Shown here piece after piece: positions 33,287 through 36,200 of a stretch of 64,000 bases of DNA. The stretch is from NCBI RefSeq assembly GCF_000027125.1, contig NC_017626.1. One strand, given 5' to 3'. This DNA is from Escherichia coli 042. Its GTDB lineage: Bacteria; Pseudomonadota; Gammaproteobacteria; Enterobacterales; Enterobacteriaceae. Each line of letters begins with the position of its first letter. Positions within the stretch are counted from its first letter, which is position 1. The notes below the pieces were generated by a model. That model had not been told where the DNA came from. It did no database searches and worked only from the letters and a program-made list of their open reading frames with translations. A program made the translations under genes and the position numbers.

Positions 33287-36200
33287 ATGGACAAGGAATT
33301 ACCGTGGCTGGCGGATAACGCCCAAGTGGAACTGAAATATAAAAGCTCAGCCATCGCAGTTGGCCGGGCGAACCGGTGCCTGTTATCACTGAAAGCCTCA
33401 TCCAGACACTGGGTGATGAATTGCTACAAAAAGCTGAGAAGAAAAAAAACATTGTCTGGCGTTATGAAAATTTTTCACTGGAGTGGCAGTCGGCCATTAC
33501 GCAGGCCATCAACTTGATCGGAGAACACAAACCCTCAGTTCCGGCCCGGACAATGGCGGCGCTAGCCTGTATCGCGCAAAATGATAGCCAACAGTTGCTC
33601 GACGAAATCGTCCAACAAGAGGGACTGGAATATGCGACTGAGGTGGTGATTGCACGCCAGTTTATTGCACGGTGTTATGAGAGTGATCCTCTGCTAGTGA
33701 CATTGCAGTATCAGAACGAGGATTATGGCTATGGTTATCGATCAGAAACCTATAACGAATTCGATCTCCGACTGCGTAAGCATCTCTCTCTGGCAGAGGA
33801 AAGCAGCTGGCAGCGTTGCGCCGACAAACTCATTGCCGCACTGCCAGGAATAACCAAAGTTCGCCGCCCTTTTATTGCGCTGATCCTCCCGGAAAAACCA
33901 GAAATCGCCAATGAGTTGGTAGGCCTTGAATGCCCGCGGACTCATTTTCATTCTAAGGAGTGGTTAAAAGTTGTTGCTAATGACCCCAGAGCGGTGAAAA
34001 AACTCGAACGCTACTGGAGCCAGGATATATTTAGCGATCGGGAAGCCAGCTACATGTCGCATGAAAACCACTTCGGCTACGCGGCCTGCGCCGCCCTTTT
34101 GCGCGAACAAGGACTGGCAGCCGTTCCACGCCTGGCAATGTATGCCCATAAAGAAGATTGCGGCAGTCTGCTGGTACAAATTAACCATCCGCAGGTCATC
34201 CGCACCCTGCTGTTAGTTGCTGATAAAAACAAACCCAGCCTGCAACGTGTAGCTAAATACAGTAAAAATTTCCCCCATGCGACGCTTGCCGCACTGGCAG
34301 AGCTTCTGGCGTTAAAAGAACCGCCTGCACGCCCTGGTTATCCAATCATCGAAGACAAAAAGCTGCCTGCACAGCAAAAAGCACGTGATGAATACTGGCG
34401 TACGCTGTTACAAACGCTGATGGCATCGCAGCCACAACTGGCAGAAGAGGTGATGCCGTGGTTAAGTACTCAAGCCCGGGCAGTGGTGAAGAGTTATTTA
34501 TCGGCATCGTCAAAACCGGTTATAGATTGCACCGATAACAGCAGTCTGCCTGAAATCCTCGTTTCACCACCGTGGCGTGGCAGGAAAAAGACTTCCATAC
34601 CTCACTTTTCGCTGCCTGAACTTACACTTGCAACGCAAGCGTGCAGGTCGTCCCAGGAACACTGGACGCCGGAACAGCAAACTGCAATTGACCATTTTAG
34701 CGCCATGTCTTTTGACGAACGTCTTGCTAAGAGAGGAGCGGATACATTCTTGCGGGAATTAGGCTTTGACGTTCATAGCCTGGAATTTAATAAGCGTCTT
34801 CTTAATGGACAGTTGGATGCCTTTGATGCTCAGCAACTGCAAGAATACACATCAATAGGACTATTGCGTACTTATTACGCGCATCAGGCCAAATCTAAAC
34901 AGTACCGGGAAGAAGCCACCAAAGCATTATTGGTACAAGATAGCATTGCGTTGATGGAAGGGTGGCGAACTTTTCAGCACGGATTTTACTATGGTAATGA
35001 AAAGCGTTGGGGGATATGGAATCTGTACCTTATCGCGCAAATGCCGCGCGAAATGGCGGTATCGTGCTGGCAACAAATTGTTGCGGCTGATTTTCATTAC
35101 ACCGGGGTGGAATATCTGTTAAGTGTGCTGGGCACTGATGCTTTGCCTGGATTAAACACCGCCTTTGCCCGACATCCAAAAGAGATATTTCCGCTGCTAA
35201 TTCATTTCGGCGCAACCGAACTGGCCCTGCCCGTTGCCCGCGTCTGGCGACGTTTCGCGGCGCAGCGTGATCTGGCCCGCCAGTGGATTTTACAGTGGCC
35301 GGAACATACGGCTACTGCACTTATCCCTCTTGTCTTCACCAAATCCAGCGATAATAGCGAAGCTGCATTACTTGCCCTGCGTTTACTTTACGAACAGGGA
35401 CATGGCGAGTTACTGCAAACCGTGGCAAACCGCTGGCAGCGTACAGATGTATGGCCTGCCCTGGAGCAATTACTTAAACAGAGTCCAATAGAGATTTACC
35501 CGACACGCATTCCAAAAGCCCCTGATTTCTGGCAGCCGGCAATGTGGTCCAGGCCGCGCCTTATCACGAATAATCAACCAGTTACTGATGACGCTCTGGA
35601 AATTATCGGCGAAATGCTGCGCTTTACCCAGGGCGGACGTTTTTATAGCGGACTGGAACAGCTGAAAACGTTTTGCCAGCCGCAAACGCTGGCAGCCTTT
35701 GCCTGGGATCTTTTCACCGCGTGGCAACAAGCTGGTGCTCCCGCAAAAGACAACTGGGCATTTCTGGCGTTAAGTCTCTTTGGCGACGAAAGCACGGCAC
35801 GGGATCTGACGACACAGATCCTTGCCTGGCCACAGGAAGGCAAATCTGCCCGTGCCGTCAGCGGCCTGAACATCCTTACTCAGATGAATAATGATATGGC
35901 ACTGATACAGCTGCATCATATATCGCAACGGGCGAAATCCCGCCCCTTACGTGATAACGCGGCGGAATTTCTTCAGGTGGTCGCAGAAAATCGCGGGCTA
36001 AGCCAGGAACAGTTAGCGGACAGATTAGTCCCAACACTGGGTCTTGATGATCCGCAGGCGTTGATTTTTGATTTTGGTCCACGGCAATTTACCGTTCGCT
36101 TCGATGAAAACCTTAACCCGGTTATCTTTGATCAGCAAAACGTTCGCCAGAAAAGCGTTCCCCGGTTGCGCGCCGATGACGATCAACTGAAAGCACCCGA

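Follow-up and report, generated by a model that had tools for sequence, protein, structure and literature searches.

The stretch of DNA analyzed here (the window, 64,000 nt of the Escherichia coli 042 genome) contains three tandem DUF4132 genes located between metG (23532-25565) and yehL (Table 1). The first two genes are intact and the third one is broken. The broken gene can be recognized as yehI by its position between the WGR/DUF4132 paralogs and the yehK/yehLMPQ genes, as well as by the C-terminal DUF4132 domain (PF13569), which is found at residues 924-1108 of an 1180-aa open reading frame (ORF) (E = 1.5e-46) and is the sole Pfam match. The order of the genes around yehI is the same in strains Ecol_316, CB8671 and K-12.

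Table 1. Features of the DUF4132 gene cluster and of the yehI start region, with positions counted from the first nucleotide of the window.
Feature	Position	Strand	State or basis
Paralog 1 (WGR + DUF4132, 1265 aa)	25706..29503	+	intact
Paralog 2 (WGR + DUF4132, 1253 aa)	29516..33277	+	intact
Native yehI ribosome-binding site (AAGGA, 33276-33280) and start codon (ATG, 33287-33289)	33276..33289	+	sequence, duplex energy
yehI pseudogene, third DUF4132 paralog, broken by a 13-bp deletion	33287..36918	+	PGAP 'DUF4132 domain-containing protein, frameshifted'
Truncated yehI frame: 19 native codons, 57 out-of-frame codons, TGA	33287..33517	+	
Rest of yehI, -1 frame, 1191 codons	33343..36918	+	upstream closure by TAA 33340-33342
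Deletion junction; 13 nt, AAGGCAAAACGCC, absent (part of K-K-G-K-T-P)	33344..33345	+	alignments to intact yehI
A8 tract, homopolymer indel hot spot of yehI	33442..33449	+	length variants across genomes

The native start codon of yehI is preceded by a good ribosome-binding site. The ATG at 33287 follows the paralog 2 stop codon by 10 nt and the AAGGA motif by 6 nt, and the predicted duplex with the 3' end of 16S rRNA (-6.2 kcal/mol) falls at approximately the 5th percentile of gene positions. The same ATG is the annotated start of the intact yehI orthologs. The first-pass annotation, made from the sequence alone, had already described this codon as well placed behind a Shine-Dalgarno sequence, and it had also noted the homology of the start segment to the upstream paralogs. 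Indeed, in the alignment the PWLAD segment falls opposite residues ~100-110 of both paralogs. No uninterrupted yehI ORF follows from this conserved ATG, since the frame is closed after 76 codons: MDKELPWLADNAQVELKYK is followed by 57 unrelated residues and by the stop codon at 33515-33517. The yehI-homologous protein sequence, KLSHRSWPGEPVPVITESL, resumes in the -1 frame after the TAA at 33340-33342, and this frame is open to 36918. The earliest start codon available in it is the GTG at 33376, from which the 1180-aa ORF extends to the same end. The first-pass annotation had thus located the change of frame behind the A4 run (33341-33344) correctly, and all of its coordinates (ATG 33287, A4 33341-33344, stop 33515 and GTG 33376) were accurate.

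The cause of the frame break, in turn, had been sought in the homopolymer itself, and this label has to be abandoned. In alignments to the intact alleles of K-12 EMG2, CB8671, GF60 and GN25, the window yehI displays one gap of 13 nt, which removes a stretch of mixed sequence and not a single A. The ancestral text TAT AAA AAA GGC AAA ACG CCG CTC (Y K K G K T P L) is reduced to TAT AAA AGC TC in codons 20-24, and the A4 run is the remnant of an ancestral A6. Strain GF60 is the most informative relative: its yehI matches that of the window at every one of the 3632 bases they share, holds the 13 additional bases and has an intact ORF. Relative to GF60 there is no second lesion in the window copy. 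Due to this complete identity at the shared positions, the deletion can be regarded as both derived and recent. Paralog 2, which has the length of intact YehI across the deletion segment, also identifies the deletion as the derived state. Neither direct repeats nor microhomology were detected at the deletion ends in the ancestral sequence, and the alignment gap has no unambiguous shift. Overall, then, the frame break had been seen correctly and only its mechanism had been misassigned, as deletion rather than slippage is responsible.

It had been proposed that one extra A would restore a continuous ORF of about 1210 aa. The arithmetic of this proposal holds (3633 nt, 1210 aa), but such an ORF is not the ancestral form, as the intact form of the window's allele comprises 3645 nt and 1214 aa in GF60 and GN25. 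The agreement with the 1210 aa of K-12 YehI is a coincidence, because the central variable region of the K-12 gene shows a net difference of 12 nt.

Complete E. coli genomes in RefSeq were searched with the segment 33150-33650 of the window, and 5323 of them gave a match. The deletion is present in 31 records, which correspond to approximately 24 strains when duplicate submissions are dropped. Among the records at 99% identity or above, the carriers (31/31) match the window perfectly over 501 nt, and all other genomes spanning the segment (more than 5200) hold the 13 bases and have a span of 514 nt. The deletion is thus shared and stable, and by the comparison with GF60 and paralog 2 it is the derived state. 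Over the whole gene (3632 nt), 27 carrier records show no difference from the window. The yehI of ECA64 differs from it by one SNP (G33693A), and HYM1 and T-HYM1 share an extra A after position 35900, which introduces a second frameshift. This insertion was considered as a compensating indel and rejected, for it lies far downstream of the deletion and does not restore the frame. In most carriers the 1191 downstream codons are without a second lesion, an observation that speaks against a null allele, and use of this ORF is still compatible with the sequence. The carrier lineage is too young for sequence decay to be expected either way.

The carriers belong to at least five sequence types (STs) of phylogroup D. 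They include THO-008 and STN0717-11 (ST393; PMC8709547), as well as ECA64 (ST663, isolated in 1995), CB6837 (ST663, 1997), CB209 (nearest ST449, 1987), KK19-02 (nearest ST130, 1986) and the O17 reference strain K12a (ST925, 1940) (PMC13248637). Among the host species of the carriers are human, cow, duck, chicken and wood-wren. In the ST69 strain CB8671, which was described together with ECA64 and K12a (PMC13248637), yehI is intact. The 13-bp deletion is a clean, stable tag of one phylogroup D sublineage, with ST393, ST663 and ST925 among its members. The pseudogene is already flagged by the RefSeq annotation. In all five carrier records inspected (Ecol_316, A10, KK19-02, HYM1 and ECA64) PGAP calls the gene 'frameshifted'; the pseudogene of Ecol_316 has exactly the limits of the window copy, and those of the other four are at equivalent positions.

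This distribution also bears on the proposal that the break is an error of sequencing or assembly at the A run and that yehI is really intact in this genome. Homopolymers are classic sites of sequencing errors, and the extra A of the carrier HYM1 could be such an artefact. The lesion itself is of a different kind: relative to intact alleles, 13 nt of mixed sequence have gone, and no change of run length is involved. In addition, the identical lesion recurs in 31 records from independent projects and different laboratories, and the carriers were sequenced by three technologies. Ecol_316 was sequenced with PacBio (PMC5517641), ECA64, CB209, CB6837, KK19-02 and O17_K12a with Nanopore R10.4.1 (PMC13248637), and others by other methods. 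Hence the error proposal is refuted, and its probability is practically nil.

Reversible switching of yehI by slipped-strand mispairing at the A run has the same negligible probability. One additional base at this site would indeed give an ORF of 1210 codons, and the likeness to the phase-variable genes of Neisseria, Haemophilus and Campylobacter consists in a frame break by a mononucleotide run near the 5' end. An A4 run is far shorter than the tracts of contingency loci, which slip at useful rates at a threshold of about 7 nt or more. The ON and OFF alleles of such loci differ in tract length alone, whereas the intact allele of GF60 differs from the window by 13 nt; the ancestral state is an A6 plus 11 other bases, not an A5. 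Close relatives would also be expected to be polymorphic in the tract. The comparison of run length across isolates, suggested in the first-pass annotation as a check, was carried out and revealed no A5 variant and no reversion among the 31 carriers. These are identical over the 501 nt from 1940 to the present, so that the state has persisted unchanged for more than 80 years and through five or more sequence types. A frame break at a short A run should accordingly not be taken as homopolymer slippage until the orthologs have been compared.

The window does not come from Ecol_316: across 64 kb the two share 98.74% identity, distributed as a mosaic. Identical or near-identical blocks are found at ~21-26 kb, 29679-39057 and 54-64 kb, and patches of 2-7% divergence cover paralog 1 and yehLMPQ. 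Among the carriers there are at least three downstream haplotypes around the common identical block 29679-39057. The window-like one is shared by A10, strain 135, CH4796, 2021CK-01784, ECA64, CB6837 and LSC52, and the second and third groups are 99.3 and 97.2% identical to the window downstream, respectively. The simplest reading is that one deletion occurred in a common ancestor and that the flanks recombined afterwards, which the haplotypes would fit. The single origin is suggested by the identity of the alleles, not by a phylogeny, and transfer of the 9.4-kb block between lineages could take the place of common descent.

What carriers of the deletion may still produce depends on the use of the downstream frame. 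It had been suggested that translation reinitiates at the GTG at 33376. A functional YehI shortened at its N-terminus to 1180 aa, started at this GTG or at another internal codon, would retain the DUF4132 domain, and the 1180-codon ORF is intact. We nevertheless consider such a product very unlikely. The GTG has no ribosome-binding site, its duplex energy (-3.6 kcal/mol, as compared with -6.2 kcal/mol for the native ATG) not standing out from a background with a mean of -1.9 kcal/mol. Ribosomes that translate the 76-codon ORF also pass over it, in a different frame. No ribosome-binding sites were found for any of the in-frame GTG, TTG and ATG codons between 33376 and 33703. Every intact ortholog is annotated from the ATG, and a product from the GTG would be devoid of both the LPWLADxAQ and the LSHRxWPGxPVP motifs, so the suggested reinitiation is left unsupported. 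These two motifs are conserved between YehI and paralog 2, which are only 41% identical overall, and the deletion cuts LPWLADxAQ off from the remainder of the protein. As judged from the sequences, purifying selection acts on intact yehI from its very first codon, dN/dS between GF60 and K-12 yehI being 0.11 in codons 1-100 and 0.02-0.27 in the rest of the gene except the central cassette.

A single true homopolymer hot spot exists in yehI, the A8 tract located farther downstream, and this is where a comparison of run length across isolates is informative, rather than at the A4 run. Exact-match searches with an 80-nt segment in ~4660 records revealed A7 in 10 records and A9 in 3, with ~6 more A9 records having a SNP. 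None of the A7 or A9 records is a deletion carrier. Altogether, A7 or A9 occurs in ~0.3% of the genomes, which makes the A8 tract the nearest analogue of a contingency locus inside yehI. The A7 allele of CFIAFB20140388 is annotated as 'frameshifted'. The A7 and A9 records partly cluster by sequencing project and thus some of them may be errors.

In the mutant frame the A8 tract, which is conserved, reads AGA AAA AAA ACA, and an A AAA AAA heptamer (33442-33448) is in phase ahead of the stop codon at 33515. A -1 slip of the ribosome at this site, or one A added by RNA polymerase, would bring translation back into the yehI frame ahead of that codon and could rescue some YehI. That such leaky recoding takes place is very improbable; its product would be nearly full-length with ~34 scrambled residues. 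The tract is indeed length-unstable or error-prone across genomes. Programmed -1 frameshifting in dnaX takes place at A AAA AAG with flanking stimulators. The likeness of yehI to dnaX is the in-phase heptamer between the frame break and the stop of the shifted frame. In contrast to dnaX, yehI has no conserved two-ORF layout, no downstream hairpin and no upstream ribosome-binding-like stimulator. The orthologs are single ORFs, undeleted in more than 5200 genomes, and the in-phase slippery site in the overlap is an accident of the recent deletion and is not conserved. The sequence downstream of the heptamer has a minimum free energy of -16.5 kcal/mol, which gives no sign of a stimulatory structure relative to shuffled sequences (z = +0.97), and no ribosome-binding-like stimulator was found upstream. 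Moreover, the recoded product would still be without the conserved LSHRxWPGxPVP motif, and an A9 suppressor has become fixed in none of the carriers. It is equally doubtful that the carriers are leaky rather than true nulls, with a single A8-to-A9 mutation restoring most of YehI in a two-step, partly reversible switch. If this were true, the restoration from A8 to A9 would be heritable, and slips would yield a low level of YehI with a scrambled patch of 34 residues.

Of the four explanations offered in the first-pass annotation, a real inactivating mutation is the one that the data support, in the form of a shared and derived 13-bp deletion from which the loss of the product would follow. The yehI of the window is a real and ordinary lineage-specific pseudogene. 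It is very probable that an inherited deletion with one origin in phylogroup D has made the gene null or nearly null. In the proposed course of events, a single 13-bp deletion would have taken AAGGCAAAACGCC out of an otherwise intact yehI of 1214 codons. Ribosomes starting at the ATG at 33287 would then read 19 correct and 57 wrong codons before reaching the stop at 33515-33517, and consequently the 1191 downstream codons would not be translated at any useful level. The deletion would have arisen once in a phylogroup D lineage that is now represented by ST393, ST663, ST925 and relatives of ST449 and ST130, and its inheritance would have been stable since 1940 or earlier. It may have been tolerated because the metG-proximal DUF4132/yeh cluster is apparently dispensable and has been lost repeatedly in E. 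coli and Shigella. We infer from the sequence that no functional YehI is produced and that the loss is neutral.

Decay in this cluster has been encountered repeatedly. In K-12 a paralog in the molR region is frameshifted and has an internal stop codon. The K-12 molR/yehH locus belongs to the same tandem family, with WGR and DUF4132 domains, and resembles the window yehI in having a frameshift and a stop in a successful lineage (PMC3950696). The paralog and the lesion are different: in K-12 the counterparts of paralogs 1 and 2 form a single 3.8-kb pseudogene, whereas both of them are intact in the window, where yehI is the broken member. The decay of molR/yehH in K-12 therefore points to a family that is dispensable both in the laboratory and in nature. 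In addition, a transposon sits in the DUF4132 region of the ST131 sublineage L1a (PMC9334617), lineages 2 and 3 of Shigella sonnei lack yehL, yehM and zorO (PMC12795559), and yehL of the window has a private nonsense codon, a TAG at 39164. Such repeated decay argues that the DUF4132/yehLMPQ cluster is conditionally dispensable. The yehI deletion adds one case to this series; otherwise it matters little beyond correct annotation.

Searches for the function of the family yielded little. PADLOC gave no match for YehI, either paralog, YehL, YehM, YehP, YehQ or a 101-aa ORF, and no relatives were found by sequence in the PDB. NCBIfam has no model for YehI, and the paralogs have only a sub-threshold N-terminal match in the WGR region. 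DUF4132 is mentioned in the ST131 study without treatment of its function (PMC9334617). On the regulatory side, BglJ-RcsB activates the molR promoter upstream of yehI (PMC3950696), and hns/stpA mutants show increased expression of yehL and yehM (PMC3686432). As for the K-12 yehI itself (1210 aa), it occupies the same position after metG and the paralogs and before yehK/yehLMPQ, and its start codon, ribosome-binding site and C-terminal DUF4132 domain are the same. The window copy differs from it by the absence of 13 nt in codons 20-24 and by the resulting frameshift. The allele class of the window (1214 aa when intact) is 85.5% identical to K-12 YehI, owing to a hypervariable central region.

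Comparison of the window with Ecol_316, a strain sharing the 13-bp yehI deletion, revealed abrupt mosaic divergence of 2-7% within paralog 1, the first of the three DUF4132 genes, and over yehL-yehQ. Between the divergent patches lies a 9.4-kb block (29679-39057), which holds the deletion and is perfectly identical to Ecol_316. Such a pattern indicates that recombination, or gene conversion between the paralogs, is frequent in this cluster. The 5' ends of paralogs 1 and 2 (25690-25903 and 29499-29713, respectively) share approximately 88-89% DNA identity, far above that of the remainder of the genes, which suggests that gene conversion has acted there. 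Both of these genes start with a WGR-type domain, which YehI lacks: YehI begins exactly at the LPWLAD motif, whereas in paralogs 1 and 2 this motif comes after the WGR domain and a linker.

Coordinates of features in and around the DUF4132 paralog cluster
Feature	Position	Strand	Remarks
WGR-type domain, paralog 1	25706-25930		start of the gene, ~75 aa
WGR-type domain, paralog 2	29516-29740		start of the gene, ~75 aa
Divergent patch	26095-26567		vs Ecol_316
Divergent patch	28340-29678		vs Ecol_316
Divergent patch	39058-45744		vs Ecol_316
OrzO-P antitoxin sRNA match, first repeat copy	37673-37746	+	91.7 bits (gathering score 60)
OrzO-P antitoxin sRNA match, second repeat copy	38281-38356	+	101.3 bits (gathering score 60)
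yehL	38468-39556	+	ATPase gene of yehLMPQ

YehI itself has a hypervariable centre (window ~34480-35400, residues ~400-700). Between the GF60-type allele, named after a strain with intact yehI, and that of K-12, amino acid identity in this cassette falls to 25-70%, with numerous indels and saturated synonymous divergence, while outside it the proteins are 90-99% identical with a dN/dS of 0.02-0.27. On these comparisons, the cassette resembles an old specificity region, allelic or recombining in nature. At least 99% identity to the allele of the window was seen in just 33 of 5332 records, beyond which the nearest was at 94%.

Run length of the yehI A8 tract (33442-33449) also differs between E. 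coli genomes: in approximately 4660 records, A7 was found in 10 and A9 in 3 to 9. The A7 allele of E. coli CFIAFB20140388 is annotated as 'frameshifted'. Some of these cases may be homopolymer errors, because several of them group by sequencing project. In addition to the 13-bp deletion, HYM1 and T-HYM1, both from ducks, have one extra A after the position equivalent to 35900. This second frameshift of the yehI pseudogene can be read as early decay of the gene or as a homopolymer error in sequencing.

In yehL, C to T at 39164 turns CAG into TAG (39164-39166), a premature stop (Q233*). The position is C in all the closest genomes (A10, KK19-02 and Ecol_316, all deletion carriers), and none of the complete genomes matches 38400-45000 without a difference. 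Unless it stems from a sequencing error, Q233* would be a second inactivating lesion in this cluster and specific to this isolate.

A direct repeat of approximately 500 bp (37286-37783 and 37894-38394, 89.7% identical) separates the yehK-like ORF from yehL. With an OrzO-P antitoxin sRNA match in each copy, it is a tandem zorO-orzO / zorP-orzP type I toxin-antitoxin locus. The RefSeq record of Ecol_316 has no annotation for the locus, and in K-12 the corresponding gap is approximately 870 bp shorter.

Outside the cluster, a CAT/CAC-rich stretch of rcnA (15511-15545), presumably encoding the histidine-rich loop of the nickel/cobalt efflux protein, is 24 nt longer in the window than in Ecol_316, an in-frame length polymorphism.
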